From positions 8,178 to 43,754 of the forward strand of contig CAZBOY010000002.1 in NCBI GenBank assembly GCA_964493655.1: 35,577 bases of DNA, given 5' to 3'. The position numbers and the translations under genes are program-made. Below the pieces are notes generated by a model. The model was given only the letters and a program-made list of their open reading frames with translations. It ran no database searches and was not told the DNA's origin. Shown in pieces: positions 1 through 34,650 of the stretch (position 1 is the stretch's first letter; the number at the start of each line of letters is the position of its first letter). The DNA comes from Candidatus Woesearchaeota archaeon. GTDB taxonomy: Archaea > Nanobdellota > Nanobdellia > Pacearchaeales > GW2011-AR1.

Positions 1-26
1 CTGCAAGAATAGCTAAAGAAGCAGGG

Positions 27-830
27 ATGTCTGATAGAGCAAGAGAGTTGTTTGATGATGCAATTGAAAGAGAAATGGGGGAAAGAAACACAAATTATGC
101 TGCAAGAATAGCTAAAGAAGCAGGGATGTCTGATAGAGCAAGAGAGTTGTTTGAAAAAGATTCAGGAAAACGAGAGAAAAAGAAAGATTTTTATGGGGCT
201 GCAAATTCTGCAGAAGAAGCAGGAATGCCGGATAGAGCGAGAGAGTTGTTTGAAAAATATGCATTAACTCAACCGAGATCCATTGCTAAAGATTGTCATT
301 TTGATAACAAAAAGATATTAGAAAGAGTTGAAAAACTGGCAGTAAAAACAGGAATAGAAAAAGAAAGGTTATATCGTGAAATAATAGGGGCTTATACAAA
401 AAGATGGGCCAACATCCCTGGAGCAGGCTATAAAACTGCCGCAGAATTTGCAGAAGAAGCAGGAATGCCTGCTGAAAGAATAAGAGATCTAAATCTGCAC
501 GCTATAGAAGGTTTTGCACGAAATAGTTATGCAGATGCAATAAGATTAGCAGAAGAAGCAGGATTAATAAAATTATTAGGGGAGGGGGTTAAAGAAAACC
601 TCCTCAGAAATATAAAAGAAGAAAGAGATTCTGAAGAAACTGCTGAACTTGCAGAAAAATTAGGAATGCCGGATAGAGCGAGAGATTATTATAACAAAGC
701 AATGCAAGAATCTGAGGCCGACGGAAGATTTGAAAATGCAGCGAAACTTGCAGAAAAATTAGGAATGCCGGATAGAGCGAGAGATTATAGAGAACTCAAA
801 AAATTGGTTGGGACAGATTTTCTTTTTTAA
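27..830 (+). CDS. Alpha-helical (TPR/SNAP-like) 33-aa repeat protein, 5'-truncated by the window
   Basis: Frame is open to the window edge. Recurrent AAxxAEEAGMxDRARE motif at 33-aa spacing, with DNA-identical blocks at 1-55/100-154 and 646-689/745-788. Confidence 0.75.
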   Translation: MSDRARELFDDAIEREMGERNTNYAARIAKEAGMSDRARELFEKDSGKREKKKDFYGAANSAEEAGMPDRARELFEKYALTQPRSIAKDCHFDNKKILERVEKLAVKTGIEKERLYREIIGAYTKRWANIPGAGYKTAAEFAEEAGMPAERIRDLNLHAIEGFARNSYADAIRLAEEAGLIKLLGEGVKENLLRNIKEERDSEETAELAEKLGMPDRARDYYNKAMQESEADGRFENAAKLAEKLGMPDRARDYRELKKLVGTDFLF

Positions 831-12580: not shown

Positions 12581-12651
12581 GCGTGGATAGTTTAGTGGTA
12601 GAACATCACGTTGCCAATGTGATAACCCGGGTTCGAGTCCCGGTCCGCGCA
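12581..12651 (+). tRNA. tRNA-Gly(GCC)
   Basis: Cloverleaf: acceptor GCGTGGA/TCCGCGC, anticodon arm TCACG-TT GCC AA-TGTGA, T arm CCGGG-TTCGAGT-CCCGG. TATA about 30 nt upstream; CCA not encoded. Confidence 0.96.
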
Positions 12652-12668
12652 TAGACTATCTCTTAGAT

Positions 12669-12754
12669 AGCTTGATCGGGATGAGAACCTTCGAGTCCGA
12701 ACAATTTGCTTTTGACAACTCTATTCATAATCTTCGAAAAGTGAATTGTGAGCA
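12669..12754 (+). repeat. tRNA-3'-associated mini-element, copy 1, between 27-bp direct repeats (12642-12668 and 12755-12781)
   Basis: GGTCCGCGCATAGACTATCTCTTAGAT is duplicated; the interior is homologous to 29772-29850. Confidence 0.85.
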
Positions 12755-12768
12755 GGTCCGCGCATAGA

Positions 12769-12927
12769 CTATCTCTTAGATTTCCTTGGCAGAAATCTTA
12801 AAAAATGAAGGAAATGTAGGAAGTTCAAATAATTCCAAGCACTTGCACCATCCATAGCTCCAGTGAAGCCTAAAAATCCCAAGAATCCAAGAAATCCTAA
12901 CCAGCCAAGCCCTCTTAAATTTTTCAT
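12769..12927 (-). CDS. 52-aa small membrane protein with LGFLGFLGF repeats (DUF3796-like)
   Basis: Translated by eye: MKNLRGLGWLGFLGFLGFLGFTGAMDGASAWNYLNFLHFLHFLRFLPRKSKR. GAGG SD-like site and TATA upstream. The family name is from recall. Confidence 0.7.
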   Translation of the reverse strand: MKNLRGLGWLGFLGFLGFLGFTGAMDGASAWNYLNFLHFLHFLRFLPRKSKR

Positions 12928-18026: not shown

Positions 18027-18171
18027 CCCGCCGTAGCTCAGGGGTAGAGCATGCGGCTGTAGAATTAGCATGGACATTCTGCTGTATTGCAGATAGAATG
18101 AAATGTGAAACGCCCTTGGCACTGGTTCAGCAGAACCCGCAGTGTCCCCAGTTCGAATCTGGGCGGCGGGA
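18027..18171 (+). tRNA. tRNA-Tyr(GTA) with a 73-nt intron at 37/38 (18063-18135); integration target
   Basis: C1-G72 acceptor CCCGCCG/CGGCGGG, anticodon stem TGCGG/CCGCA with CT GTA G, T arm CCCAG-TTCGAAT-CTGGG. The CTGT/GCAG helix with an AAC bulge forms a relaxed BHB. Confidence 0.93.
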
Positions 18172-18226
18172 TTAAGATTTAGTTAGAAAAGTAAGGGTTT
18201 ATAAAACCTGTAATATTTAGGATTAT

Positions 18227-19288
18227 ATGAAACAAGAATATCCAAGATATAAGCAAGGAGAGTTAGATTTGATTGAGAAAAAAATTTGTGATAAAGACAA
18301 AGTTGCATTAAACGAATTTACAAAAAAATGTTCTATAACTTCTGGAGAAAGAAAAGTTAAACAAATTAGAAAATTAATACTCCAACTCTTTGATGTAACT
18401 CAAATACCATTAACACAGCAGACAAAAGAAACAGCAGATAGTTTTTTAGTTCTGCTTAACAAGTGTGATAAAAGTTACTGGACTAAAGACGAGATTAAAA
18501 TTTATGTTAAGAACTTTTTGTTGAATTATTATAAGGATTACGCTATGGTTGAAAATTTTAAATCAAGTGGGAAAAAAGGATTAAACCCGCAGAAGATAAC
18601 CGAGAACAATCTAATAAGTGAAAAGGATGTTGAGAAGATGTTAAGGTTCGCACAAAGTTATAAAGAAAAATGTTATCTGCTTCTTGTATTTCAAACAGGA
18701 GCAAGACCTCAAGAACTTGCAGAGTTAAAATGGTCTGAAGTTAAGTTTGAAGATAAATATGCAGAAGTAACTTTATTCTCAAATAAAACTAAACAAAGCA
18801 GAAGTTTTCCTATTGTTGAAAAAACTAAAGAGGCTTTGTGGGAATGGAAACAGCATTATTCTTTTCAAGATATTAAACCTAATGACTATGTTTTTCCTTC
18901 AAGATGGAGAAATAAACCAATTACTTCTGCAGGACTTAATAAGATGTTAAGAAGAATGAGTGAATCTGCAGGACTTAATAAGGATGTTTGGAATTATCTC
19001 TTTCGGCATACCAGAGCAACAAGATTATATGAAGAACTGCCTCAGCAGATTGTTGAAAAATTAATGGGTCATAAAAATATGGCTGGGATTTATGCACACA
19101 TTAGTTCAAAAAAAGCAAGAGAAGAAATGCTTAGTAAAATTTATAAGATTGATGATATGCCCCAAGAAAAAAAGAACGAGTTAGAGTTAGAAGTCGCAAC
19201 ATTAAAAAAGAATTATAAAAATCTGCATAAAGAATTTCAAAAGTTTGCTGGTCGTGTTGTGGCTACGAATATCAGTTCTAAGATTTAA
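18227..19288 (+). CDS. int: Tyrosine recombinase/integrase
   Basis: TGARPQEL (catalytic R), YLFRHTRAT, LMGH, IYAH (catalytic Y); located immediately after attL. Confidence 0.93.
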   Translation: MKQEYPRYKQGELDLIEKKICDKDKVALNEFTKKCSITSGERKVKQIRKLILQLFDVTQIPLTQQTKETADSFLVLLNKCDKSYWTKDEIKIYVKNFLLNYYKDYAMVENFKSSGKKGLNPQKITENNLISEKDVEKMLRFAQSYKEKCYLLLVFQTGARPQELAELKWSEVKFEDKYAEVTLFSNKTKQSRSFPIVEKTKEALWEWKQHYSFQDIKPNDYVFPSRWRNKPITSAGLNKMLRRMSESAGLNKDVWNYLFRHTRATRLYEELPQQIVEKLMGHKNMAGIYAHISSKKAREEMLSKIYKIDDMPQEKKNELELEVATLKKNYKNLHKEFQKFAGRVVATNISSKI

Positions 19289-19336
19289 ATCAAGCCATTA
19301 CAAGCATTTATAAAGGTTAATAATCTTAATAATCTT

Positions 19337-19516
19337 ATGGTTAAACACGTTTTTGCAGTAAGTTTAGATAAAGAAGTTATAGATAAAGTTAAAAAAATTC
19401 TTAAAAAGTGGGGCGGTTCTGTTAGTGCTATTGTTAATCAACTTTTAATAGAATGGTTAATTAAAAACGACCCAGATTATAAAATAAAAAAAGAGGAGGC
19501 AAGTTCTAAAAAATAA
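19337..19516 (+). CDS. Ribbon-helix-helix DNA-binding protein (59 aa)
   Basis: Translated by eye: MVKHVFAVSLDKEVIDKVKKILKKWGGSVSAIVNQLLIEWL...; TATA about 30 nt upstream. Confidence 0.75.
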   Translation: MVKHVFAVSLDKEVIDKVKKILKKWGGSVSAIVNQLLIEWLIKNDPDYKIKKEEASSKK

Positions 19517-19574
19517 TTAAATAAAAAGAACCCCCGCAAGTTATAAGGCGTGCAAGGGTGGGCAATCTCATAAA

Positions 19575-19976
19575 ATGAAATCACTTAATAGAACCAAACA
19601 AAGCAACTTTTTAAATTCTTCGGCTCAATCTAAGAGTAACGACTTTTTTTTGGCGGAGGCACGTGTGGAGAAGTGTAAGCAAGACCTTAAGAAATACTTT
19701 CATCCCCAAAACACAACCCTTAGTAAGCGATTTGAAATAATCTATAAAATTTTTGGTTTGAATGATGAAATGATTGCGAGAGAATTGGGAATAGACCGAA
19801 CAACTATGAACAGATACAGGAGAGGGGTTTTTATTCCTGTAACAAATATGAAAAGATTAATTTCTCAAGCAATTACAAAACTTTGTAATTATCCTGTGGA
19901 TTCTTCTGTTTTATGGGGTAGTGATTTATTTTTTCAAGAATGGAAAGAAAATAAATTAAAGGGTCTGGGAAAATGA
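19575..19976 (+). CDS. XRE/Cro-type HTH regulator
   Basis: LNDEMIARELGIDRTTMNRYRRG. Confidence 0.8.
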   Translation: MKSLNRTKQSNFLNSSAQSKSNDFFLAEARVEKCKQDLKKYFHPQNTTLSKRFEIIYKIFGLNDEMIARELGIDRTTMNRYRRGVFIPVTNMKRLISQAITKLCNYPVDSSVLWGSDLFFQEWKENKLKGLGK

Positions 19977-20431
19977 AACAAATTAACATAACCCAACTAA
20001 ACGAATACACCTGTCAAAGAACGGGATGTAATAATATCATTAAGGGTTGTGAGGATATTGTTATAATTCAAAATGTTTTTCCTGTTTGTTCGGATTTATG
20101 TAAGTTTTTGGTTATATTTAAGATTCTTTGGAGTTATGATGATTTAAGTATAAATTATTTAATAAAACTGCTTCATCTTAAGCAAAGGGGATATTATAAT
20201 CGTGAGAAACGTGTTTTTGAACTTTCAAAGAAGGTTTATCAAATACTTTTATCGTCGGTAAATGATGTTACTCATACTCATACTCATAAAATCTTGAGTA
20301 TGAGTAAAGGTTACTTCCAACGTGTTACTCATTACTCATACTCACTCATATCTATAGATATGAGTGTGAGTAACACGTTGAGTAACCCCATTTTGAGTAA
20401 AAGTAAAGGAGGTTTAGAAAAATGGATGTAA
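19973..20431 (+). CDS. Hypothetical Zn-ribbon protein; the C-terminal third overlaps the origin-like repeats
   Basis: CQRTGC...CSDLC; the ATG overlaps the upstream stop (ATGA). Confidence 0.55.
   Translation: MKQINITQLNEYTCQRTGCNNIIKGCEDIVIIQNVFPVCSDLCKFLVIFKILWSYDDLSINYLIKLLHLKQRGYYNREKRVFELSKKVYQILLSSVNDVTHTHTHKILSMSKGYFQRVTHYSYSLISIDMSVSNTLSNPILSKSKGGLEKWM
20268..20400. repeat. Putative replication origin: TACTCA/TGAGTA iterons in nested palindromes
   Basis: 13-bp arms 20268-20280/20295-20307; 14-bp arms 20318-20331/20367-20380 enclosing a perfect 24-bp palindrome at 20343-20366; directly upstream of the primase-helicase. Confidence 0.7.
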
Positions 20432-22191
20432 TAAGCAAAAACCTACCAAACGAAGCAAAATACCTCCAATTAATAAAAAACACAAAGAAACCTATAAAAC
20501 AAGAATGGACATCAATACCACACAACCTTAAAGATAAAGCAAACCAACTTCTTAAACAAGGTTATGGCATAGGTTTTCTTTTAGGTGATGGGTATGTTGG
20601 GGTTGATTGTGATTCTATTGAACTTGAACTTGCAGTTGAACAATTAATTAAAACTCCCACATATACTCAAAAATCTGCTGGGAGGGGTATGAAACATTTT
20701 ATCTTTAAATGTAACTTTGATAAAAACTTAGGACTTAAACATAATAATCAAGAAGTTGGGGAGATATTATGTTCAGGCAGACAGATTATTCTTGCTCCAA
20801 CAAAGATACAAGATAAACAATACACTATCCTTAATGATATCCCTCCCGCAGAGATAACAAAAGAAGAACTTTTATCTGTTATTTTGCAGTTTGAGAGTAA
20901 GATAACTCAAAAATCAGTTACAGAAACAAAAAAACTTTATGAGAAAGCGGATATTGATGATTTAAGCATTACTTCTATTATTTCAACAACAGGAATGCAA
21001 CAGGATAGTAGGGGGCAGTATTTTGGAGAGAATACTTGGCACGGCTCAACAACAGGTCATAATTTTTATATTAACCCTCAGAAAAACCTTGCTTATTGTT
21101 TTAGGTGTGATTGTGCTATCTCTCCCGCCAAAGCCATCGCTTTAAATGAAGGTATAATATCAAATTGTTCAGATGAGTTAAGAGGAGAGGATTTTATTAA
21201 AACCCTTGAAGTCGCAAAAACAAAATACAATCTTAAAGATAAAAAGGAATTAAGTGAAAAAGAAAAACAAGATACACCTCTTAATTTTTGGACAATCCAA
21301 GATTATGAAAATTACAAACCCCCAAAAAATTACATAATTGAAAACTTATTGTTTCCTTCTGAAATTGCTATGAATTACGGACAGACCAGTTCTTTCAAAT
21401 CCTTTTATAATTTATATCAAGCGGTTTGTATTTCTGCTGGTAGAAAATTCTTAAATAAATTCAGAACTAAAAAACAAGCAGTTGGAATTTTATCTGCTGA
21501 AAATTCTATTGCTGTTGATAAGGATAGAATTAAAAAAATTATGCGGGGTTTAAGAATAAGAAAAAGAAATATACCCCTTTATATTCTCCCAAGAAGTGAT
21601 TGTTTTGATATCTTAAACTTAAAATTCAAAGCAAAACTAATTAAATCCATTCAAAAGAAAAACATTAAGTTATTGTTCCTTGATACAATCAACCCTTTAA
21701 CACCTGAGATTGATGACAACAAAGCCAGAGATGTAACCAGAACTTTTAATGAATTTTTAAAATTACTTGCAGATGTTTATGGAGTTTCAGTTGTATTTCT
21801 ACATCACACAGACAAACAAGGCAAAGCATTTTTAGGCTCAACTAAGTGGAAAGCAAACTGCGATTGTGTTACAAGAATAGAAAGAAATGGATTAAAAGAA
21901 AGTTTCTCTTTGTATAATGAAAAAAACAGAACAGGAGAAACCAACACCTTAAAGATTAATATTATGTTTGGCGAAAAGGATATTTGTTTTTCTTTAGTTG
22001 AGGAAACTGCTCCAGAGATATTCAGCAAAAACAAAAAGATGACACAAGCAGAATTTTTTGATTTAAAATTAAAGGAACTTTGCGAAAAGGATATGGAGAG
22101 AGCAAAGATATTTGAAATTTTTGAAGAGAATGGGATTAAATTTTCAAGAGCAAGTTTAGACAGAGCAATTAAAATCTGGAGAATAAAATGA
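20422..22191 (+). CDS. Primase-polymerase (AEP prim-pol) + Zn finger + RecA/DnaB-like (AAA_25-type) helicase replication protein
   Basis: GIGFLLG..YVGVDCD, SAGRGMKHFIF, H...NFYIN....AYCFRC, Walker A GQTSSFKS, Walker B LLFLDT, HHTDK...GS; SD AAAGGAGG. Confidence 0.88.
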   Translation: MDVISKNLPNEAKYLQLIKNTKKPIKQEWTSIPHNLKDKANQLLKQGYGIGFLLGDGYVGVDCDSIELELAVEQLIKTPTYTQKSAGRGMKHFIFKCNFDKNLGLKHNNQEVGEILCSGRQIILAPTKIQDKQYTILNDIPPAEITKEELLSVILQFESKITQKSVTETKKLYEKADIDDLSITSIISTTGMQQDSRGQYFGENTWHGSTTGHNFYINPQKNLAYCFRCDCAISPAKAIALNEGIISNCSDELRGEDFIKTLEVAKTKYNLKDKKELSEKEKQDTPLNFWTIQDYENYKPPKNYIIENLLFPSEIAMNYGQTSSFKSFYNLYQAVCISAGRKFLNKFRTKKQAVGILSAENSIAVDKDRIKKIMRGLRIRKRNIPLYILPRSDCFDILNLKFKAKLIKSIQKKNIKLLFLDTINPLTPEIDDNKARDVTRTFNEFLKLLADVYGVSVVFLHHTDKQGKAFLGSTKWKANCDCVTRIERNGLKESFSLYNEKNRTGETNTLKINIMFGEKDICFSLVEETAPEIFSKNKKMTQAEFFDLKLKELCEKDMERAKIFEIFEENGIKFSRASLDRAIKIWRIK

Positions 22192-22346
22192 AATGCGAAT
22201 TTAAATCCTGCAGAAAAAAAGCCACAGCATTTTTTAACAGAAAAGAATACTGCAATTTTCATTATCACCAACTCAAAGGAAAAATAAACAAAAAAGAACG
22301 GATGAAAAATAACCAACTTGCTAAGAAAAATAAAGGAGAACAATAA
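22188..22346 (+). CDS. Small C3H Zn-finger protein (52 aa)
   Basis: MKCEFKSCRKKA...YCNFHY; overlaps the helicase stop (ATGA). Confidence 0.6.
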   Translation: MKCEFKSCRKKATAFFNRKEYCNFHYHQLKGKINKKERMKNNQLAKKNKGEQ

Positions 22347-22496
22347 AAATGAAATCAAAACACAACTCAATTAAAGTTTTAGGTGGTTTTCAGTCTTTTT
22401 CGGGGTATTTCGGTATAAAAACCAGACACCATCCCCTTAAATTAATTTGTAAGGGTCGCATTTCAAGTAATATGATGAAAGGAGGTTTATAGTAAA

Positions 22497-22664
22497 ATGG
22501 CAGAAGAACAAAGCAAAAAGAAGTTTAGTGTTGGGTTCGTTATGGATTTGAATGAGAGAACAGAACTCTTAGAAGTGGTGAAGAAACAAAAACTTAGTCC
22601 ACCCTCCTTTGTGAAGTGGGCAACTTGGAAACTCGTCCGAGAACTTAAAGCAGAGGCTCAATAG
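22497..22664 (+). CDS. Small RHH-like protein (55 aa)
   Basis: MAEEQSKKKFSVGFVMDLNERTELLEVVKKQKLSPPSFVKWA...; strong SD AAAGGAGG; hairpin AGGCTC-AATA-GAGCCT at the stop. Confidence 0.65.
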   Translation: MAEEQSKKKFSVGFVMDLNERTELLEVVKKQKLSPPSFVKWATWKLVRELKAEAQ

Positions 22665-22828
22665 AGCCTTTCCTTTAGAGTTTTAACCCAGAACAGCGAA
22701 CAACATACCTAATTATTTGAGTAAAACACTTATACCAACACCACACACCTTTGAAGGAGTTGTTTATTAGGGGGGTTGATTCGGGCTGGGAAGTGGGCGG
22801 GTATCATACTTAATTAAATGTATTGAAA

Positions 22829-23236
22829 ATGAAACAAGAAGAAAAAAAGACACTTTCCACTTGGGTTTGGATTATTGTAGTAGTCTTAATCTTGATAAGT
22901 CTGGGAAATCTCTTTTTTGCAATGATAGGATTGGCAATAGGTTTTGCGTGTGGTTATAAGAACTATGAATGGGCAAGAGAAATAAAAAAGAATACAGACA
23001 TAGCGTTCTTAATAGGATATTGCTTTGGACTTCTCGGACTATTGGGATATTGGATTTATTATAGAAATAAACCTAAAAAATCAGTTGAGCAAAAGGAAGA
23101 ACTAATAAAAGCACAAAAAGAAAAGATTGAAAAATTTCAGGGAAAAGATAATGATAATTTTACTTTTATGTTAAAAGTAGCGGAGGTTCTTATTGTCCTT
23201 GTTTTAATCTATTTTTTAATTAGGTGGATTTTCTAA
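22829..23236 (+). CDS. Multi-TM membrane protein (cargo)
   Basis: Three to four hydrophobic segments. Confidence 0.75.
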   Translation: MKQEEKKTLSTWVWIIVVVLILISLGNLFFAMIGLAIGFACGYKNYEWAREIKKNTDIAFLIGYCFGLLGLLGYWIYYRNKPKKSVEQKEELIKAQKEKIEKFQGKDNDNFTFMLKVAEVLIVLVLIYFLIRWIF

Positions 23237-23281
23237 ACATTTTTAAGGTTTGATTGTATGAATGATTTATTCCGAACTTTT

Positions 23282-23842
23282 TTATGATTTATAACATCTA
23301 AAATCAACTATTTCAAAAGTTTGGTTTAAAATATCACGCAGACCACTTTTTACTTCTTCCATATTTACTCTATTAAGAACTAAATCAACTCTGTAAATGA
23401 TTGTTTCACCTATTGTCCCATCTTTGGAAATCAGAGTTTTAGAATATCTTAATCCATCACAATAATTATAATTTTGGTTTTCACCTTCCTCACTCCCCCA
23501 CCTACATTCATAAAAATACCCCACATTCCTATCCCCTATTGCCTCAATACCTGTTCCATCTTTCCAAGTAGAAGTCCAATATCTCAAGAGAGTCTGTTGT
23601 TCAGTAGGAGAACTATATACTGGTTTTGGAAATTCAATAATAATTTTTTCAGGGATTATGTTTTTAATACAATAATCATCATTTAAGGTTGCTTGTTTAG
23701 TTAATTCGCTTCCTACTTTTAAAGGGGCGTTCTTAATGCTTTTGATTATATCAAATCCAAAAACATAATAACATAGGAATAAAATTCCAATTATAATTAA
23801 GATTGTAATCCATACCTTGTTTAGAGTTTCAGACGAAACCAT
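23282..23842 (-). CDS. Membrane-anchored Cys-containing extracellular protein (cargo)
   Basis: N-terminal TM and a beta-rich domain with several Cys; the only minus-strand cargo gene. Confidence 0.75.
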   Translation of the reverse strand: MVSSETLNKVWITILIIIGILFLCYYVFGFDIIKSIKNAPLKVGSELTKQATLNDDYCIKNIIPEKIIIEFPKPVYSSPTEQQTLLRYWTSTWKDGTGIEAIGDRNVGYFYECRWGSEEGENQNYNYCDGLRYSKTLISKDGTIGETIIYRVDLVLNRVNMEEVKSGLRDILNQTFEIVDFRCYKS

Positions 23843-23981
23843 AACTATTTCATTAATTCAAAGTTTAAAAACATTATCAAAAGCCTCTTGCGACAGGTTT
23901 TATTTTTTCATATTGGAAGCCCCATATTTGCGACATAACCTTATTCACAAAGATTTAAATTATATTGGGACACATAGTTTT

Positions 23982-24236
23982 ATGGGATTTTGGGATTGGT
24001 TTATAAAAAAACCTAAAAAGAAGATAAGCGAGAGAAATAGGGGTTGGATTAGAGTAGATGCTCCTAAAATGCCTCGTTGGGCAAGGGATACTTTATTCAA
24101 TAGGGTTAATAAGTCAAGTGCTAAAGGAATAGCATATACAAAAGGTAATCATTATTATTACAAGGTTGTTATGAAACCTGATCTTAATTCAGGTAAATTT
24201 GACTTTTATTTTTATAAAAAGAAAATGAAAAAATGA
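23982..24236 (+). CDS. Small basic hypothetical protein (MGFWDWF...)
   Basis: ATG 28 nt after TTTAAATT; the upstream extension in the ORF track overlaps divergent promoters. Confidence 0.7.
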   Translation: MGFWDWFIKKPKKKISERNRGWIRVDAPKMPRWARDTLFNRVNKSSAKGIAYTKGNHYYYKVVMKPDLNSGKFDFYFYKKKMKK

Positions 24237-24487
24237 AAACAGAAGTATGGCAATATGATAAATTTTGGAAATTTTTTATAATTTACATCCCTTTGTTTAT
24301 ATTTTCAATGTTTTTGTTCATTTGGGTTGCGATAATACCCTGGATCAATTCGGAATATTTGATAACCAATAGTTTATCCGCTAAATTGATTCTTAGTGGA
24401 ATTGCCATTTTTTTTATGGTTATGGGAATTAACAAATTTGTTAAACAAATTAAAATTTATAATAAACTCAAGAAAAAAACAAAATGA
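24233..24487 (+). CDS. Two-TM small membrane protein
   Basis: Two hydrophobic helices; ATGA coupling. Confidence 0.7.
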   Translation: MKTEVWQYDKFWKFFIIYIPLFIFSMFLFIWVAIIPWINSEYLITNSLSAKLILSGIAIFFMVMGINKFVKQIKIYNKLKKKTK

Positions 24488-24693
24488 CAGAAACAATAAC
24501 AACTGGCGGATTAAAGGAATTTGTGCATCCTAAAAATTACAAGTTTGAGAAAGACCCAGAACATTTAGAACAAGAACAAAAGATTCATGATGCTTATGAA
24601 GAGCATTATAGAATAAAGAGGAGAAACAGAATGATTAAAATTGGAGCCGTTGTCTTAATTATTTTAACTGCCTTGTATTTTTTATTAAGATGA
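24484..24693 (+). CDS. Small C-terminally anchored membrane protein
   Basis: Basic stretch followed by a TM at the C-terminus; ATGA coupling. Confidence 0.7.
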   Translation: MTETITTGGLKEFVHPKNYKFEKDPEHLEQEQKIHDAYEEHYRIKRRNRMIKIGAVVLIILTALYFLLR

Positions 24694-26402
24694 AAAACCA
24701 TAAACATATTTGTACCTATTGCGCGTCTCACAAAGGAGATAAGAAAAAGAAAGATGCTTCTCGTTGTAAGTATTGTGGAGAATATTATTGTAATGAACAT
24801 AGAAAACCAAAATTTCCTTCGATACCTTTATTTGAATCAGTAGGAAAAGAGGCAGAGGAAATTATGGAAAATTATCATAGTGCTGGGGGGCATCCTTGTT
24901 TTCCATACTTTTTTTCAGAAGATGAAAAAAAACAAAATCAAAAATCCAAAGAAACAGATGATTACTTAGAAGCATTAGACTCTTTAAAAAATCAATCAAG
25001 GAATATTTTTACACCTATAAAAAAGGTTACGGAAAGTTTTGAAGATGAATTTGAAAATAAGGGGAATAACTTTCAAATAAATCTTTCAAATCCAAGAAAA
25101 TCAGTCAACCAACCCAATAGACTTTCCGAAAGAAAAAAACCAAGATTATCAAAATTTATTTTAGAGAATAAATTTACTTTATCTATAGTCTTATTTTTTT
25201 TGGTTTTAGTATTCCTTTTTTGGATGGGCTTCTTCGACGATTATTTAGCAGGACATCCTCAACTTGGTGGACTTACGAATAACTCTTTAGAATCTCGGGA
25301 GATTACCAGTTATGGATTTGATAAGATTAATTTGTTGAGGATATCAAGCAGAGTAACTAAATTAAATTTTAATTTGAAGTCTTATAATTTGGCCGTAGGT
25401 TTATCGAAGCATTTCTATAACCTTAATAAATATTCTTTATCAGATTCAGAACTTTTAGGATTTGAAGGGAAATATAATATAGATGATTTCAGATATATTT
25501 CTAAAAAATTTGAGGGTTTAACAAAGGACTCAATGGATTCTGTGATTAGTGAATGGGAAACTAAACCATTTATATTTGAACTTATTTTGGGCGGTTCATT
25601 TAACGATGGTGCTTTTGGATGTTACCTTGATGTTTGTACGATAGTCCTTAAATCTACACCTGTTGTTCCTGCAGAAACTTATAAACCTGTAATAACCCTC
25701 CCTAAAAATGAAAATGTAAAAGAAGACAATAAAAATATATACGAAGAGATTAAAGGTCTTTTGTCTAAAGATTCAGAAAAATATCAAACAAATCCTAAAA
25801 CTGTTAAATTATCTTTGATAGGTGATTTTATTGTTTACCGGGGGGTAAATGATTATCTTGCTGGATTAGATAGAAGTATAAGTTACTATTACACCCCGCC
25901 AACATCTAAAGATTTTATTTTGCGAGATTTAGATAATAAAGTTCAGAAAGATTATCTTAATCTATTAGTTGATAAAATTAAGGCTAAGTCTGACGATCCA
26001 GACCAACAAGCAAGAACTGCTATAAGTATGGTTCAGGCAATTCCTTATGATTGGGATGCATTTAATTCTGGGAATGTTGATGGAAGGTATCCTTATGAAG
26101 TACTTTATGATATGAAAGGTGTTTGTATGGAAAAAGCTGATCTGCTAGCATTTTTATTAAGGGAATTAGGTTATGGAGTAGCAATATTTGAATATAATGC
26201 CGAGAACCACAGGGCAGTTGGAATACAATGTGAAAAAGGAAATTACAACACCCAGTATTGTTTTATTGAAGCTACAAATTCTTATCCCATAGGACAAATC
26301 CCCGAGGGTTATGTTGGTGGGGCAGATATAAGAAATGCAAATCCTGAAGTTGTAGTGATAAGCGGGGGGAGGACTTATCTACTGAGATTAGCTTCTAATT
26401 AA
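24690..26402 (+). CDS. AN1-like Zn finger + TM + degenerate CAP-like + transglutaminase-like cysteine protease domain protein
   Basis: CTYC..CKYCGEYYCNEHR; TM at about residues 163-181; YPYEVL..KGVCMEKADLL...NHRAVGI...YCFIEAT (C-H-E triad). Confidence 0.8.
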   Translation: MKNHKHICTYCASHKGDKKKKDASRCKYCGEYYCNEHRKPKFPSIPLFESVGKEAEEIMENYHSAGGHPCFPYFFSEDEKKQNQKSKETDDYLEALDSLKNQSRNIFTPIKKVTESFEDEFENKGNNFQINLSNPRKSVNQPNRLSERKKPRLSKFILENKFTLSIVLFFLVLVFLFWMGFFDDYLAGHPQLGGLTNNSLESREITSYGFDKINLLRISSRVTKLNFNLKSYNLAVGLSKHFYNLNKYSLSDSELLGFEGKYNIDDFRYISKKFEGLTKDSMDSVISEWETKPFIFELILGGSFNDGAFGCYLDVCTIVLKSTPVVPAETYKPVITLPKNENVKEDNKNIYEEIKGLLSKDSEKYQTNPKTVKLSLIGDFIVYRGVNDYLAGLDRSISYYYTPPTSKDFILRDLDNKVQKDYLNLLVDKIKAKSDDPDQQARTAISMVQAIPYDWDAFNSGNVDGRYPYEVLYDMKGVCMEKADLLAFLLRELGYGVAIFEYNAENHRAVGIQCEKGNYNTQYCFIEATNSYPIGQIPEGYVGGADIRNANPEVVVISGGRTYLLRLASN

Positions 26403-26405
26403 AAA

Positions 26406-26627
26406 ATGAAAGACAAAACTAAATTTCTTTTAATTATCATTATTATCCTTATTGTTGTTTTCTATTTTTTAATTCTTCCAAATGTTTCCCCTGATTTCAA
26501 TTTAAGTATGGCTATTGGCATTTCTTTATCTTGTGGTTTAGTTGTGGCTTTGCTGAAAATGTTATCCGAGATTAACTATCATAAGTATACAGAATGGTTA
26601 AGGAGTTTGTTTTCTAAAGATTTTTAA
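26406..26627 (+). CDS. Two-TM small membrane protein
   Basis: Two hydrophobic segments. Confidence 0.7.
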   Translation: MKDKTKFLLIIIIILIVVFYFLILPNVSPDFNLSMAIGISLSCGLVVALLKMLSEINYHKYTEWLRSLFSKDF

Positions 26628-26649
26628 GTCTTGATTCTCTTTAATTCTT

Positions 26650-27042
26650 ATGGCAAAATGTGAGTCTTGTAATAAAAACATTTCATTATGGAATACCTAT
26701 TTTGATAATGAAACAGAGTATTGTAAGGGTTGTTGGCAGAAGAAGAAAGACAAAATAAAGCAAGTTGAGGTTAAGCAAGAGGATAATGATAATAGTAATA
26801 AAATAAACAAGGATAAAGAATTGGTTAGGGGAATTTATGAAAAAAGAAAAAATGAACAAGATTTAAACTTAAAAGAACGTTTGAGGGTTGCGGGTATTCC
26901 TTTCTGGTTATTTATTCTTACGATTGGGTTGGTTATAAAATTGTGTGTTGATTTTAGGGTCTTAAATTTTGAATCCTACCAATTTAATATCGAAAATGAT
27001 TATGGTCTTGGAAAGCAATATACAAAACCTAACCCCCACTAA
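26650..27042 (+). CDS. Zn-ribbon + TM hypothetical protein (C-terminus possibly disrupted)
   Basis: CESC...CKGC and one TM; the ORF ends inside the inverted-repeat site at 27031-27061. Confidence 0.6.
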   Translation: MAKCESCNKNISLWNTYFDNETEYCKGCWQKKKDKIKQVEVKQEDNDNSNKINKDKELVRGIYEKRKNEQDLNLKERLRVAGIPFWLFILTIGLVIKLCVDFRVLNFESYQFNIENDYGLGKQYTKPNPH

Positions 27043-27167
27043 TTAAGGTGTGTGTGGTTGGCTCTATTAAATAGTTTTTCGGGTGTGAAAATTTTTTTCA
27101 CGGAGTATTTATAAATATTAAACGCCTCTAATAATTAGGGTCGGGATTGAAAGGAGGAGATTTAAAA

Positions 27168-27332
27168 ATGGAACAGAAAAAACAAAACAAATGTGTGATA
27201 AATATTAAGAGAGATTGGATAGGTAGAATCACAAGAGCAAAATTCAAAGGTTGTGACCTTGAACAATTGGAAGCAACATTAAAGAAAAGAAACATAAATT
27301 TAGGCGATTTTAATTTAATTAAAAAAGGATAG
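27168..27332 (+). CDS. Small hypothetical protein (54 aa)
   Basis: Strong SD AAAGGAGG before the ATG at 27168. Confidence 0.6.
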   Translation: MEQKKQNKCVINIKRDWIGRITRAKFKGCDLEQLEATLKKRNINLGDFNLIKKG

Positions 27333-27362
27333 ATTTATTAATGTTTTCTGGTTTTGTTATTT

Positions 27363-27743
27363 ATGGGTTTATTTGATTTCAAAATGCCGAAGTTTAAAGC
27401 ACCTAAAGTTGAACGTTTAAAAGTCGCAAGGTTGCATATGACGAAAGTTGGAGATAGAACTTCAACATCTGCTCAAAGAAGAAAATTAAAAGAAGCTGTT
27501 GGATTCAAATGTCAAAGATGTGGGAAAAAGTTTGACGGGAGATTATTAGAAATCCATCATAAAAAATCAATCGCAAGTCATAAGAATAAACTTACTGGAG
27601 TAGACTTTCCTGTTTATTCTTTAGGTAAAAAGATTAAACCTAAATATGACAGAAAAAGCAACCTTGAAGTAGTTTGTATTTATTGCCACGATAAAACTAA
27701 GAAACAAAAGAAAAAACCAAAACCTCTCTGGAGTAGATATTAA
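27363..27743 (+). CDS. HNH endonuclease
   Basis: CQRCG...LEIHH...SNLEVVCIYCH. Confidence 0.85.
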   Translation: MGLFDFKMPKFKAPKVERLKVARLHMTKVGDRTSTSAQRRKLKEAVGFKCQRCGKKFDGRLLEIHHKKSIASHKNKLTGVDFPVYSLGKKIKPKYDRKSNLEVVCIYCHDKTKKQKKKPKPLWSRY

Positions 27744-27749
27744 AGAAAA

Positions 27750-28058
27750 ATGAATAAAAAAGCAATAGGATTAGATTGGGTTATATTTATTATAATTCTA
27801 ATACTTATTGTTTTATATATGATTTTGAATAATGTTTATTTAACTCATACCACTTTTGAAACAGAATTTTGGGAATGTGAAAATGGGGAGCCGATAGCAA
27901 AGGAAATGTTTTATATAGAAAGTTGTGATGCTACTTGTGGTGCGAGTAGTAGTTCTTGGGTTAGTAAAACAAAGAATGTTCTTTCTTGTGAGGATGATAA
28001 AGCTGTTTGTGAATGCAAAACAACTGTGTGGATTACTTACATCTCTCCGTTGTTTTGA
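27750..28058 (+). CDS. Pilin-like protein (class III signal peptide), Cys-rich
   Basis: MNKKA followed by a hydrophobic helix; six Cys. Confidence 0.65.
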   Translation: MNKKAIGLDWVIFIIILILIVLYMILNNVYLTHTTFETEFWECENGEPIAKEMFYIESCDATCGASSSSWVSKTKNVLSCEDDKAVCECKTTVWITYISPLF

Positions 28059-28230
28059 CTAATTCTTCTAAAATACTTGCAGTGCCTTACTTCTTGGATT
28101 GGATGTTAAGTTGTTTTTCTAAACATTTATATACTATTTTGGGATATTTAAAATGTGAAATTCAGTAGGGAGTTTTGTTTTTATTTGACATTTTCAAAAG
28201 TTATTTAAAGTATCTTGTTTAATTTTATCT

Positions 28231-28395
28231 ATGGGAAATCTTGGATTTTGGATTATTTTGTCTTTACAGGCGATAAGTATATTTCTCTTAGTAAGTTTTC
28301 TTTTATCTTCATATACTCCATTTTCCCTAATTCTTGGTTTAATACTCGGAGGAACAACCGCAGGAATTGAATACGGGATATATACAAAAAAATAA
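28231..28395 (+). CDS. Two-TM 54-aa membrane protein between 17-bp direct repeats
   Basis: Translated by eye: MGNLGFWIILSLQAISIFLLVSFLLSSYTPFSLILGLILGGTTAGIEYGIYTKK; TATA about 28 nt upstream. Confidence 0.65.
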   Translation: MGNLGFWIILSLQAISIFLLVSFLLSSYTPFSLILGLILGGTTAGIEYGIYTKK

Positions 28396-28445
28396 TTTTT
28401 TGACATTTTCAAAAGGTTTTTATAAGACATTTATTTCTATTAATT

Positions 28446-28778
28446 ATGAAAAGAAACACCCTTGCCATACTCTTTATAATCTCTATTTTAATCATAATTG
28501 GTTTATTGTCATTAGTTGTAGTAAGACTATATTCTCCGATAACCCATACATATTTTCTTACGGAAGAACAACAAAAATTGTTAATTGGTTCGATTAGTGG
28601 GGGTATAGAGTATAATTCTGGGACGGGTGAAGAATATACTGAAAAATGTTTAAATGCTTGTGCTAAGAGGTGCGTTTCTTCAGGATATAAATATGATTTT
28701 TCATTTATAGTTTCTCGAGATAACTTTCCCGAATGTTTAGGTTCACAAAATTGTTGTATGTGTGGGTGTATTGAATAA
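28446..28778 (+). CDS. Membrane-anchored Cys-rich small protein
   Basis: N-terminal TM; CLNACAKRC...C....CCMCGC. Confidence 0.7.
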   Translation: MKRNTLAILFIISILIIIGLLSLVVVRLYSPITHTYFLTEEQQKLLIGSISGGIEYNSGTGEEYTEKCLNACAKRCVSSGYKYDFSFIVSRDNFPECLGSQNCCMCGCIE

Positions 28779-28895
28779 ACCATTTTAGTGATGGTTATTA
28801 AGTTTTATTTCTTTTGGACTGGTTGTTAAGTTTATCAAAGTTCAGTAGTGAGAACTCGGGGTTAAGTATTTAAACATGTTTTCGCTGTTAAAAAC

Positions 28896-29411
28896 ATGAG
28901 AAAGGAAGGTTCTTGGTCGCAGGTTAGGATTGCTGTGGGTATTGTTTGTCTTGTAGTTCTTGTTGGTTTTTTCTTATTAAATTTTACAGATAAGGGTTCT
29001 AAAGTAACTGCTAATGTTATAAAGGGTTTAAAGGATTGTGAAATGAAACAAGTTCCTTATCAAGTTGAAGAAGAGTATGATTATTATTTAAAAAATCAAG
29101 TTATTTCAGGTTATCAAACTGAAGAAGTAGAATTGTTTGGAAAGGGTGTTTATAGGGAAGGAATTGTTAAAGTAATGAACACAGATAACGAGGCGGGATG
29201 GTTTATAGTAACTTTTAATTGGGAAACCTTATATGATAAAAAAACTGATAGTGTAAGGCATTATATAGAACCTGATGAAACTATTGAATTCGTTTCCATA
29301 TATGATAATGACTTAGGAGAAGATACTAAATTCAAATATTCTGTTCAGTCTAATGTTATAAAGAAAACCAGAATGGTTACAAAATACCGAACAGAAGAGG
29401 TTTGTGAATAA
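28896..29411 (+). CDS. Membrane-anchored beta-rich extracellular protein (possible class III signal)
   Basis: MRKEG followed by a TM and a TANVI motif; N- and C-terminal Cys. Confidence 0.75.
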   Translation: MRKEGSWSQVRIAVGIVCLVVLVGFFLLNFTDKGSKVTANVIKGLKDCEMKQVPYQVEEEYDYYLKNQVISGYQTEEVELFGKGVYREGIVKVMNTDNEAGWFIVTFNWETLYDKKTDSVRHYIEPDETIEFVSIYDNDLGEDTKFKYSVQSNVIKKTRMVTKYRTEEVCE

Positions 29412-29412
29412 A

Positions 29413-29625
29413 ATGAATAAAAAAGCTGGAGCAGGACTTGTAATTTTTATAATTATAATTCTTATCGTTGCAGTTTTAGTTTGGGGTTATGTTGGTGGTG
29501 AAGAAGCAAAAAAAGTTGGAGTAACCTGTGATATGGGTGTTGGTGAAACTTTTTGCTGGAAGTGGCATACGAATGCTATTGGTAGTGTAGGGGAAGCATT
29601 AGGAAATATGTTTAGGGGTGGTTAA
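29413..29625 (+). CDS. Small pilin-like protein (class III signal peptide)
   Basis: MNKKA-GAGLVIFIIIILIVAVLVW; a Cys pair. Confidence 0.7.
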   Translation: MNKKAGAGLVIFIIIILIVAVLVWGYVGGEEAKKVGVTCDMGVGETFCWKWHTNAIGSVGEALGNMFRGG

Positions 29626-29767
29626 ATATTAATGAACACTCCCAATCGCAGCAAGCTGCGGGGTAAACCCCAGGGGAGAATTTAGGTTTAAACCCTAAAA
29701 AAATAACCAATTAGAAATTCTGGGCGGCGGGATAATAGGGGATTAAAGATCCCCTTTAATTTTCTCT

Positions 29768-29862
29768 CCCAGATGAGAACTTTCGAATCCGAACAATTTG
29801 CTCTTTGAACTATTTTATTTATGATTTTGAAAAGAATGAATTGGGAGTTAGGCGGCGGGATA
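29768..29862 (+). repeat. tRNA-3'-associated mini-element, copy 2 (native tRNA-Tyr trailer), ending in a duplicated GGCGGCGGGATA
   Basis: 29/31 identity to copy 1 over GATGAGAAC-TTCGA-TCCGAACAATTTGCT, with similarity continuing to the end; 12-bp repeat at 29723-29734 and 29851-29862. Confidence 0.85.
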
Positions 29863-29934
29863 TAACTCAAAAACATTTACAACAATCTCCCAATGCACAA
29901 CAAGATTTATAAATCTCAAAACAGAGATTAAAAC

Positions 29935-33883: not shown

Positions 33884-34230
33884 GTCACTAAAACTAAAAA
33901 TAAGCTTTTAAACCTTTTTATGATAGAGTTTTTAGCCAAGAATATAAAGTCCTATAAGATAATCCCTTAAAATAAAATCCACCTGCAAAAATCCGCTCAT
34001 TTCATTCGCTCTCACATTTTTGCACCGCCAAGTTTATAATCTCTGATAACCCCCTCGATGATTTATTGTAATCTTTATAAATTTCTTCAGCTCGAACGGG
34101 AGTGCGAAAGATTTGCTCTTGATTATTTTTAATATGATCTACAAGACTAAATCGTGAGGAGAGCGATTTAATTTCAACAACCTTTAGACATTCTATAAAA
34201 TTAAATTGTGAGTGAGAGCAAAGGATAACT

Positions 34231-34650
34231 TTAATTCTCAACATGCCCAACATTGTAAGCAACAAAATCCTGGCCCTTTAGTTTTTTCAAATCTTCCTTG
34301 CATATTTTTATCACTGTCTCGTTTACAAGTATATCTTCTTCATGTATTAATTTCTTTGCTTCTTCTTCCCCAAATTCTTTTATATAATATTCTAATTCTT
34401 TTTTCTGAGCTTGATTATGGCTCCACCCATAGCTAAATCCTTGTTTAAGAAAAATTCTTTCTTCAATTTCATGAACAGCAATTCCATTATGAAATTTTTC
34501 AGGAACATCTTTGTCAACATAAATTAATTTTCCATTTTCATAAAAATCCCCCACCCCATCTATTCTTGAAGAAGAATCAATTAGATATTTCTTCCCCTTG
34601 TAAGAAAAAACTTTTTTCCTTTCCTGAAGTTTTTGTATTTGTTCAGTCAT
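34231..34650 (-). CDS. Hypothetical protein with metal-binding HExxE...H motif
   Basis: IAVHEIEE...SHNQA. Confidence 0.7.
   Translation of the reverse strand: MTEQIQKLQERKKVFSYKGKKYLIDSSSRIDGVGDFYENGKLIYVDKDVPEKFHNGIAVHEIEERIFLKQGFSYGWSHNQAQKKELEYYIKEFGEEEAKKLIHEEDILVNETVIKICKEDLKKLKGQDFVAYNVGHVEN

Follow-up and report, generated by a model that had tools for sequence, protein, structure and literature searches.

Two tRNA-linked units in the window

The stretch of DNA analysed here (the window, 35,577 nucleotides, G000:C2:8178-43754) belongs to a Woesearchaeota-like (DPANN) genome of 713 kb, which is assembled in 43 contigs and is 85% complete. Rfam finds four tRNAs in it, two of the four with introns. 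Behind tRNA-Gly(GCC), and again downstream of tRNA-Tyr(GTA), lies a short non-coding unit composed of an arm antisense to the T-arm of the tRNA, a T-loop copy in sense orientation, a conserved stem-loop module (hereafter M) and a re-copy of the tRNA 3' end; such units measure ~85-120 bp. The order of the parts is the same in both copies, namely tRNA, trailer hairpin, antisense arm, T-loop sense copy, M, and the tRNA 3' end again. The two cores (12680-12710 and 29772-29802) are identical at 29/31 nt, and the window holds the shared 23-nt pattern GATGAGAACYTTCGARTCCGAAC two times, where 100 shuffles predict 0.00, which upholds the homology proposed in a preliminary description of this DNA.

Throughout, G000 denotes the source genome; G185, G103, G409 and G415 belong to four other genera, and G401 (59% complete) belongs to the genus of G000. 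The tRNAs were called with ARAGORN (also with introns) and Rfam RF00005. Units were tallied from two covariance models, R1, built on both window copies, and R2, rebuilt with the G185 copies added, together with a tRNA-by-tRNA scan. The parts of unit 1, behind tRNA-Gly(GCC), are as follows.

12581-12651, + strand: tRNA-Gly(GCC), intact, host of unit 1 (ARAGORN; Rfam RF00005, 68.6 bits)
12642-12668, + strand: first copy of the direct repeat, which takes in tRNA positions 64-73 and 17 nt of trailer (sequence; all 27 bp recur exactly at 12755-12781)
12656-12670, + strand: trailer hairpin, CTATCT / AGATAG with loop CTT (sequence; RNAfold)
12674-12689, + strand: antisense arm GATCGGGATGAGAACC, complement of tRNA-Gly positions 52-67 (sequence; arm-versus-tRNA test)
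12690-12698, + strand: sense copy of the cognate T-loop TTCGAGTCC, positions 54-62, first half of the second, partial tRNA tail (sequence)
12698-12754, + strand: M of unit 1, with CGAAC, a 12-13-bp stem, an A/T-rich loop and GTGAGCA (R1, R2, covariation, helix check)
12755-12781, + strand: direct repeat copy 2, second half of the partial tail (64-73 plus 17 nt of trailer) (sequence)

Unit 2 now lies apart from tRNA-Tyr, with an integrated element (described below) in between.

18027-18171, + strand: tRNA-Tyr(GTA) with an intron of ~73 nt, original host of unit 2 (Rfam; ARAGORN with introns)
29723-29734, + strand: direct repeat copy 1 of unit 2, tRNA-Tyr 64-73 plus 2 nt (sequence)
29738-29754, + strand: trailer hairpin of unit 2, GGGGAT / ATCCCC, followed by T-rich TTTAATTTTCT (sequence; fold)
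29768-29781, + strand: antisense arm of unit 2, complement of tRNA-Tyr 52-65 (sequence; arm-versus-tRNA test)
29782-29790, + strand: Tyr T-loop copied in sense, TTCGAATC with a further C (sequence)
29790-29850, + strand: M of unit 2 (R1, 107.5 bits; 47/59 aligned positions identical to M of unit 1)
29851-29862, + strand: direct repeat copy 2 of unit 2, exact over 12 bp (sequence)

The Gly arm (12674-12689) pairs with tRNA-Gly 52-67 through 12 Watson-Crick and 2 G.U pairs, with a tandem G.A at the centre, opposite G57 and A58. Similarly, the Tyr arm (29768-29781) pairs with tRNA-Tyr 52-65 through 12 Watson-Crick pairs and the same tandem G.A. These counts confirm the complementarity described for both arms, and the re-copies of 27 bp and 12 bp were located as exact repeats. 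The internal stem claimed for both copies was found as well (in M of unit 1, 12701-12713 paired with 12737-12749), and it is supported by covariation, not by folding energy. The sequences between the direct repeats, 86 bp in unit 1 (12669-12754) and 116 bp in unit 2 (29735-29850), are free of open reading frames (ORFs).

Anatomy and layouts of the units

The relation between the parts is plainest in the G185 units. There, TTCGAATCC and the re-copy GCGCGGGGCTA together read as the exact tRNA positions 54-73, so the T-loop copy and the 3'-end re-copy are one partial tRNA tail, which M divides near position 62/63. An unbroken complement of ~53-67, the antisense arm directly abuts the sense copy. 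Since the arm pairs with both halves of the tail, a single strand can fold as a three-way junction formed by arm/T-loop copy, arm/re-copy and M. Segment 53-67 is thus present in three copies (sense, inverted, sense) and 68-73 with the trailer in two, with M inside the last copy. Four layouts occur among the units.

A1: arm from 67 down to 53; sense copy spanning 53-61; M; tail again from 63 to 73
A2': arm from 61 down to 45; sense copy spanning 44-53; M; tail again from 57 or 60 to 73 (locus L090 of G415, locus L118 of G409)
A2: armless; sense copy spanning 44-53; M; tail again from 53 or 57 to 73 (locus L022 of G415, Leu unit of G000)
A3: arm; apex capped by a different hairpin; sense copy running without a break to 73 (unit U1 and locus L132 of G409)

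The intact tRNA and the trailer, often with a hairpin, are constant across the four layouts; in most units, as judged by comparison across unit loci, a hairpin of differing sequence occupies the trailer-hairpin position. All four also hold a second direct copy of the tail, which reaches the tRNA 3' end and then continues over a variable stretch of trailer, and in most units part of the tRNA tail is also present in inverted form. The direct repeats begin at the module boundary (position 63/64 in the window-type layout), and their reach into the trailer varies: 12, 27 and 44 bp (the last in G185), 22 bp after a tandem pair, and 36 bp in G409.

Arms and T-loop copies follow the adjoining tRNA

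In nine units, the distal 7 nt of the arm were compared with positions 61-67 of their own tRNA and with 28 tRNAs of G000. At most 5/28 background tRNAs pair equally well with the arm in 8/9 units, in line with the earlier proposal that the arms track the adjacent tRNA; the exception is the Pro unit of G103, with 11/28. The equally pairing background tRNAs include some whose 61-67 sequence is identical. The T-loop copy likewise tracks the adjoining tRNA, reading TTCGAGTCC, TTCGAATCC, TCAATTCC, GTTCAAATC, TTCGATTCC and GTTCAATTCC.

The arm departs from exact complementarity in a regular way. In the units of the window, G185 and G415, GA in the arm stands opposite GA in the sense strand and gives the tandem G.A, at two separate places in L090 of G415; T-loops without GA give perfect palindromes (G103; unit U2 of G409). 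In a small sample, the departures read in the arms comprise seven C-to-T changes (G.T on the sense strand) and no G-to-A change. The base of M contains a tandem G.A of the same kind (CGAAC against GUGAG), and the M helix makes ample use of G.U, GU occurring 15 times at one base pair and UG 14 times at another. Because tandem G.A and G.U pairs are stable on the tRNA-sense strand only, a single-stranded form (RNA or DNA) is indicated.

The covariation of M was examined in 34 matches, 31 of them distinct, in an alignment that had been fitted to the model, which favours structure. In this alignment, 91.4% of the cells are paired against 75.9% in shuffles, and double-sided changes occur in 14/16 pairs; the observed values were reached by 0-1 of 500 shuffles. 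Sliding the partners as a control gave 21-45% paired. In addition, predicted folding is more stable in the G185 and G103 units than in their shuffles (z -2.44 and -3.32).

Distribution over tRNAs and genomes

Further copies at other tRNAs, the absence of which would have spoken against the preliminary description, were found in G000 and in the four other genera.

G000, behind 5/30 ARAGORN tRNAs: Gly(GCC), Tyr, Gly(CCC) (degenerate, chimeric), Asp (diverged) and Leu(TAA) (no arm)
G185 (another genus): tRNA-Gln(TTG) and tRNA-Gln(CTG)
G103: tRNA-Pro(TGG)
G409, 4/39 Rfam tRNA matches: Ser(GGA), an intron-bearing tRNA, Lys(TTT), and a tRNA with anticodon CAA (by eye)
G415: Ser(GGA) and one other tRNA
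G401: 0/7 M copies beside a tRNA

The 39 matches of G409 comprise 36 that were scanned, two known beforehand and one at a contig end. The choice of unit-bearing tRNAs differs among genomes; in the tRNA-by-tRNA scan, the Gln and Pro(TGG) genes of G000 are free of units. Units may also stand in tandem. Two identical 120-bp units lie at tRNA-Gln(CTG) of G185, and in G409 two different units lie at Ser(GGA) and two of 90 bp at the anticodon-CAA tRNA.

A strict 30-nt pattern matched G185 alone among 401 genomes of the order, and among the GTDB species genomes the strict pattern matched only G185 and one unrelated bacterium (E 0.57 with the model). With stricter filters, R2 was positive in 5/61 relatives. 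Given how few genomes the strict pattern and R2 match, most of the searched genomes are blank at this sensitivity. The strict 23-nt pattern had no match in viral contigs. Synteny with G401 could not be read, the two genomes of the one genus being too diverged, and M alone matched.

Module M as a dispersed repeat

M is not confined to the tRNA-linked units. In the 713 kb of G000, 17 copies were counted by a criterion of motif plus helix, 11/17 of which have E<=0.05 in R2. Besides the tRNA units, M occurs in type B repeats (a 45-nt palindromic 'L-motif' with M inserted), in type C repeats (MITE-like, that is, resembling miniature inverted-repeat transposable elements; ~230 bp, with terminal inverted repeats CCTGCAAAAATCCG...), at other intergenic sites and in two ORFs. 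M cores are alike by genome and not by context: the Gly unit and a type B copy of the same genome share, for example, 86%, and cores of the same context share 58-67% identity across genomes. One further copy lies in the window.

34085-34163 (core 34105-34158), + strand: third M copy, diverged, no tRNA adjoining (R1, 33.8 bits, E 3.7e-6)

This copy was detected by R1 only and missed by R2 at E 0.05, and it sits inside a type C repeat. The repeat occupies window positions ~33950-34270 and has three further copies in the genome (C1, C24, C27); the minus-strand ORFs over it (34002-34265) are probably spurious.

One of the two ORFs is the gene for isoleucyl-tRNA synthetase (IleRS; C31:1409-4270), in which M stands in frame, the copy with its carrier motif lying at C31:3629-3707 (locus L028, ~2221-2299). 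The insertion adds ~24-28 residues between the WQxL and ESxHL motifs and is lacking in 8/8 aligned relatives, including the one of the same genus. IleRS matches were obtained in 24/25 relatives searched, and most are split into two adjoining pieces at the insertion point. The IleRS copy and another type B copy are identical at 44/52 positions. As predicted from the ORF, M in the IleRS gene is read through in frame. Taking the 17 copies and the IleRS insertion together, M has spread independently of the tRNA units and is probably mobile on its own. Another M copy (C7:12391-12446, locus L029) lies on the sense strand of a 422-residue ORF, the frame of which is kept.

The L-motif (TTAGGAAAGGTGAACTTCAGGAAAACCTAGGTTTTCCTAAG, a 45-nt palindrome) is found at C1:18860-18911, C9 near 18527, C28:820-845 and locus L142 of G409. 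It abuts the 5' ends of tRNA-Asp, tRNA-Pro(CGG) and, carrying M, tRNA-Arg(GCG), and in reversed orientation it makes up most of the intron in four or more tRNAs (C11:2383-2557, C14:16964-17142, C18:10383-10538, C10:6462-6554). By its appearance, it may be a mobile intron or leader element.

An integrated element at tRNA-Tyr

The sequence that separates tRNA-Tyr from unit 2 has the following parts, attL and attR being the left and right attachment sites.

18158-18172, + strand: attL, the last 14 nt of tRNA-Tyr plus 1 (sequence)
18173-29718, + strand: integrated element of ~11.5 kb, separating tRNA-Tyr from unit 2 (Pfam; PF00589 search; 15-bp repeat)
18227-19288, + strand: tyrosine integrase of the element (Pfam, PF00589)
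20422-22191, + strand: Prim-Pol/AAA_25 replication protein of the element (Pfam)
29719-29733, + strand: attR, 15-bp repeat of tRNA-Tyr positions 60-73 plus 1 (sequence)

Because the 15-bp end of tRNA-Tyr is repeated at 29719-29733, an element of ~11.5 kb has integrated into tRNA-Tyr and displaced the older unit 2 downstream. The letters of a tRNA 3' end are indeed present where the preliminary description had placed a 'tRNA-Tyr 3' fragment', but they are the attR of this island and not a standalone fragment; unit 2 thus originally adjoined the full tRNA-Tyr. The same description had considered that the unit might be a decoy attachment site, which finds no support here, as the integrase of the island used the real tRNA-Tyr and not the downstream copy. 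The island and unit 2 form a tandem arrangement in the window.

Many small same-strand ORFs of the island (18173-29718) have no Pfam match. In the region 28248-29899 of the window, contigs from four runs join position 28248 to 29899 with 10 other letters between; this joint skips the right end of the island, attR and unit 2, and may derive from a related strain or element. At the start of the window (1-830), the first ORF consists of diverged 99-nt tandem repeats in at least seven register-matched copies.

Comparison with described families

A match to a described family, which by the preliminary description would have removed the novelty, was not obtained in Rfam 15, which returned tRNAs alone for the whole window at gathering thresholds, for both loci at E<=10 and for five further loci. 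The best non-tRNA matches at the two window loci (E 0.066-9) overlap the tRNA or are noise.

As in tRNA-integrating elements, exact repeats of the tRNA 3' end stand at both borders and the tRNA is intact (27 and 12 bp; 44 bp in G185). An element of this kind with its own integrase is rejected, for no ORF lies between the repeats and the three PF00589 genes of G000 are elsewhere. As in MITEs, many non-coding M copies are present per genome (17 in 713 kb), and the type B and type C carriers of M have terminal inverted repeats. The tRNA-linked unit itself is not a MITE: its inverted repeat is internal and derived from the target, and its flanking repeats, at 12-44 bp, are not of fixed length.

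A system of repetitive extragenic palindromes (REP) mobilized by a Y1 transposase was dismissed, since the sole Y1 gene of G000 (C1:58183-58539) is flanked by hairpins other than M. In relatives, R2 matches were found near 1/10 Y1 loci. Y1 is present in 4/5 genomes with M and in 14/56 without, an association that is weak and confounded. The Y1 gene of G000, on the minus strand, is of the IS200 type and sits between hairpins of its own, ~230 bp short of a contig end; the terminal hairpin sequence of this locus recurs at the start of contig C2. A TnpB guide RNA (IS200/IS605) and a retroelement were discarded as PF07282 and the PF00078 reverse transcriptase, respectively, were not found in G000, a genome 85% complete.

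Several other identities were tried and rejected. A misincorporation origin of the GA swap does not fit the second swap of L090 in G415, which lies in the T-stem. For an archaeal bulge-helix-bulge intron, M was removed in silico, and 0/17 sites gave a tRNA (ARAGORN, 1989 border variants); hand inspection, without a dedicated intron finder, revealed no bulge-helix-bulge motif at the borders of M. For a C/D box small RNA, GGGAUGAG and GUGAG are near matches only and the spacing to any internal box is ~26 nt; the best Rfam match to a small nucleolar RNA has E 5.4. The core letters and spacings of GAUGAG...GUGAG misfit a hammerhead (by hand), and a kink-turn lacks the 3-nt bulge in the right place.

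Interpretation of the units and its alternatives

Recurrence at differing tRNAs, tandem arrays, variable exact repeats, the chimeric Gly(CCC) unit and the spread of M fit a non-autonomous mobile unit. Based on these sequence features, the units may be non-autonomous and mobile, entering tRNA 3' ends by recombination and using a fold-back of one strand as attachment structure, a tentative reading to which we give slightly less than even credence. The unit would carry a replacement tRNA 3' end and trailer, so that the tRNA would stay intact. The fold-back would be formed by the antisense arm together with a second copy of that tRNA segment in sense orientation; a hairpin module (in the window, M) would interrupt this sense copy ~9-10 nt from the apex or cap the fold-back, and the sense copy would continue into the displaced original tRNA end, which would give the direct repeat. 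A unit would enter through a single recombination within the tRNA 3' end, and the enzyme would act in trans, a tyrosine recombinase being the obvious candidate. The folded single strand would rebuild a duplex copy of the T-arm/acceptor segment and may thereby serve as the attachment structure, and copying or gene conversion may keep the arms and copies matched to the adjoining tRNA. The direct repeat begins exactly where the closing helix starts, and this, together with the fold-back, would look like a folded single-strand attachment site. The tRNA-targeting mobile element suggested in the preliminary description is accordingly the best fit in view of the other tRNAs, the tandem units and the M copy in an essential gene, although no empty site, excised form or enzyme partner was seen.

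A number of observations weigh against such a mobile unit. No recombinase is tied to the units, and the sole integrase nearby belongs to the other element, the ends of which are without M. As a double-stranded circle, 85-120 bp would be implausibly small, and another intermediate, single-stranded or otherwise, must be assumed. A change of tRNA needs three new tRNA-specific segments by a route that is unexplained, and the fold-back spans 53-67, 44-62 or 49-62, so that one recombinase site misfits some units. Contigs of four lake-water runs contain the occupied Gly locus only and no joint across the unit, a blank that in this material proves nothing. In viral contigs, a 17-nt M pattern gave 42 matches, none of them confirmed by the model, which are therefore chance matches. 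Finally, the window copies fold with an energy no better than that of shuffles on either strand (z +0.23, +0.64), and their structure rests on covariation instead.

A functional RNA would account for part of the evidence. The unit may form a 3' extension pairing with the T-arm of its own pre-tRNA, with a part in folding, 3' processing or quality control, or a separate, protein-binding small RNA with a three-way junction. The stable non-Watson-Crick pairs confined to the tRNA-sense strand (tandem G.A in the arm helix and the base of M, G.U in M), the compensatory changes in both helices, the tracking of the tRNA by the arm and the better folding of the G185 and G103 units all agree with this. 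Only 5/30 tRNAs of G000 are equipped with a unit, however, and other tRNAs elsewhere, which is odd for a maturation signal; T-runs that are likely archaeal stop signals precede the arm (TTTTTTTCTTTTCTT in L090 of G415; TTTAATTTTCT in unit 2); and neither the blank Rfam search nor the spacing of the C/D-like boxes is favourable. Tandem duplicates and direct repeats reaching into the trailer would be left unexplained, and we consider a functional RNA unlikely, though worth keeping in view. For the cis-acting RNA on the pre-tRNA named in the preliminary description, the G.A and G.U pairs thus favour a single strand, but the T-runs in several trailers and the minority of tRNAs concerned speak against it. 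A more novel reading is a protein-less 'programmable' attachment device, in which the arm would splint the T-arm/acceptor duplex on a single strand (DNA or RNA) and a host or helper recombinase would join it to the tRNA gene. Such a device would be the archaeal equivalent, directed at tRNAs, of CTX attP, integron attC and similar folded sites; we think this improbable.

The threefold presence of 53-67, the twofold presence of 68-73 with the trailer and the position of M within the last copy could also be read as a scar, left where M was inserted into the T-arm of a single-copy tRNA gene and a template switch (direct, inverted, direct copies) rebuilt an intact upstream tRNA in the survivors. 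M does insert elsewhere, including in an essential gene, and the extent of the repeats varies. The same complex geometry would nevertheless have been needed independently at at least ten loci, and the arm is an unfaithful copy, with GA systematically opposite GA. Units with an uninterrupted sense copy (L132 of G409) or a different hairpin (unit U1 of G409) exist, and the Gly and Tyr units have derived letters in common outside M, so that we regard a scar as quite unlikely. Deletion remnants are known for integrative elements, and the units could be decayed stubs: an ordinary, larger plasmid or virus integrated at the tRNA would have lost its interior and left the two ends that flank its attachment sites. 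Each unit does lie between repeats of the tRNA 3' end, and an island with integrase and Prim-Pol occupies the same tRNA-Tyr. Random decay, however, would not yield a layout that is conserved between genera with compensatory changes. The island's own ends carry neither M nor arm, no full-length relative ending in M appeared among 61 relatives or viral contigs, and decayed stubs are in our judgement very unlikely.

Relation to known systems

The ends of tRNA genes are classic landing sites of mobile DNA. The tRNA-end elements known to us encode an integrase of their own and lack an inverted target copy. The unit duplicates the tRNA 3' end and leaves the tRNA intact as these elements do (attL/attR, and integrase-less tandem remnants), and it resembles them in the variable reach into the trailer and in the tandem units, which here lie beside a real integrase island. 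It differs in being 85-120 bp long and gene-free with one core at many tRNAs, in holding an inverted target copy, and in that the repeat starts at a hairpin within tRNA-like sequence.

The attP hairpin of filamentous phage CTX (XerCD) and integron attC are recombination sites formed by a folded single strand. The unit is similar to these in that an imperfect inverted repeat with a mismatched stem folds to a duplex imitating the target, with a central variable hairpin and with tandem arrays beside a regenerated target. On the other hand, the target is an archaeal tRNA gene, no recombinase or single-stranded replicon was identified, and the hairpin is mostly offset into one arm instead of being apical.

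Rickettsia palindromic elements insert in frame in genes. Like these, MITEs and REP, M is a short non-coding hairpin in many copies, nested in MITE-like repeats, and like the Rickettsia elements one M copy is read through in frame in an essential gene, as predicted from the ORF. MITEs can be numerous in this group of archaea, a Woesearchaea genome being listed with 105 MITEs per Mb in a MITE census (PMC11602168). The tRNA-linked unit differs from MITEs and REP in having neither terminal inverted repeats nor a short target duplication of fixed length, and M differs from REP in that it does not flank the IS200-type transposase gene of G000 and lies near such loci in relatives in one case of ten.

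For archaeal bulge-helix-bulge introns, transposition between tRNAs has been proposed. M resembles these introns as an intervening sequence at non-canonical T-arm positions (~52/53, 62/63) with similar copies at differing tRNAs; it differs in lying in partial copies and not in working tRNAs, and in showing no splice motif by inspection. The route by which tRNA introns arrive is left open in a 2026 preprint (10.64898/2026.10.13.758758). A model in which integration of mobile elements disrupts tRNA genes and leaves tRNA fragments and new introns is presented by Sugahara et al. 2012 (PMC3293823). As in that model, a partial tRNA copy with an intervening sequence lies beside a tRNA gene, and one recombination between the T-loop copies would put M inside the tRNA. 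The units differ from it in that the intact tRNA is free of M, no bulge-helix-bulge is seen at the M borders by inspection, and the partial copy is a 3' tail ~100 bp away.

Implications

The fold-back is a new feature of these units. An element of ~100 bp that keeps an antisense copy of the adjoining tRNA is found behind various tRNAs in archaea with very small genomes, in five genera or more, and the partial tRNA copies that it contains are open to misreading in annotation. The IleRS gene suggests that small palindromic repeats can sit, read through, in an essential synthetase gene. Since the sense strand already holds a hairpin at T-arm positions, one further recombination would deliver the hairpin into a tRNA; if true, archaeal tRNAs could acquire non-canonical introns by this route. 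Should the arm choose or rebuild its target, the units would represent a new way of aiming at tRNA genes.

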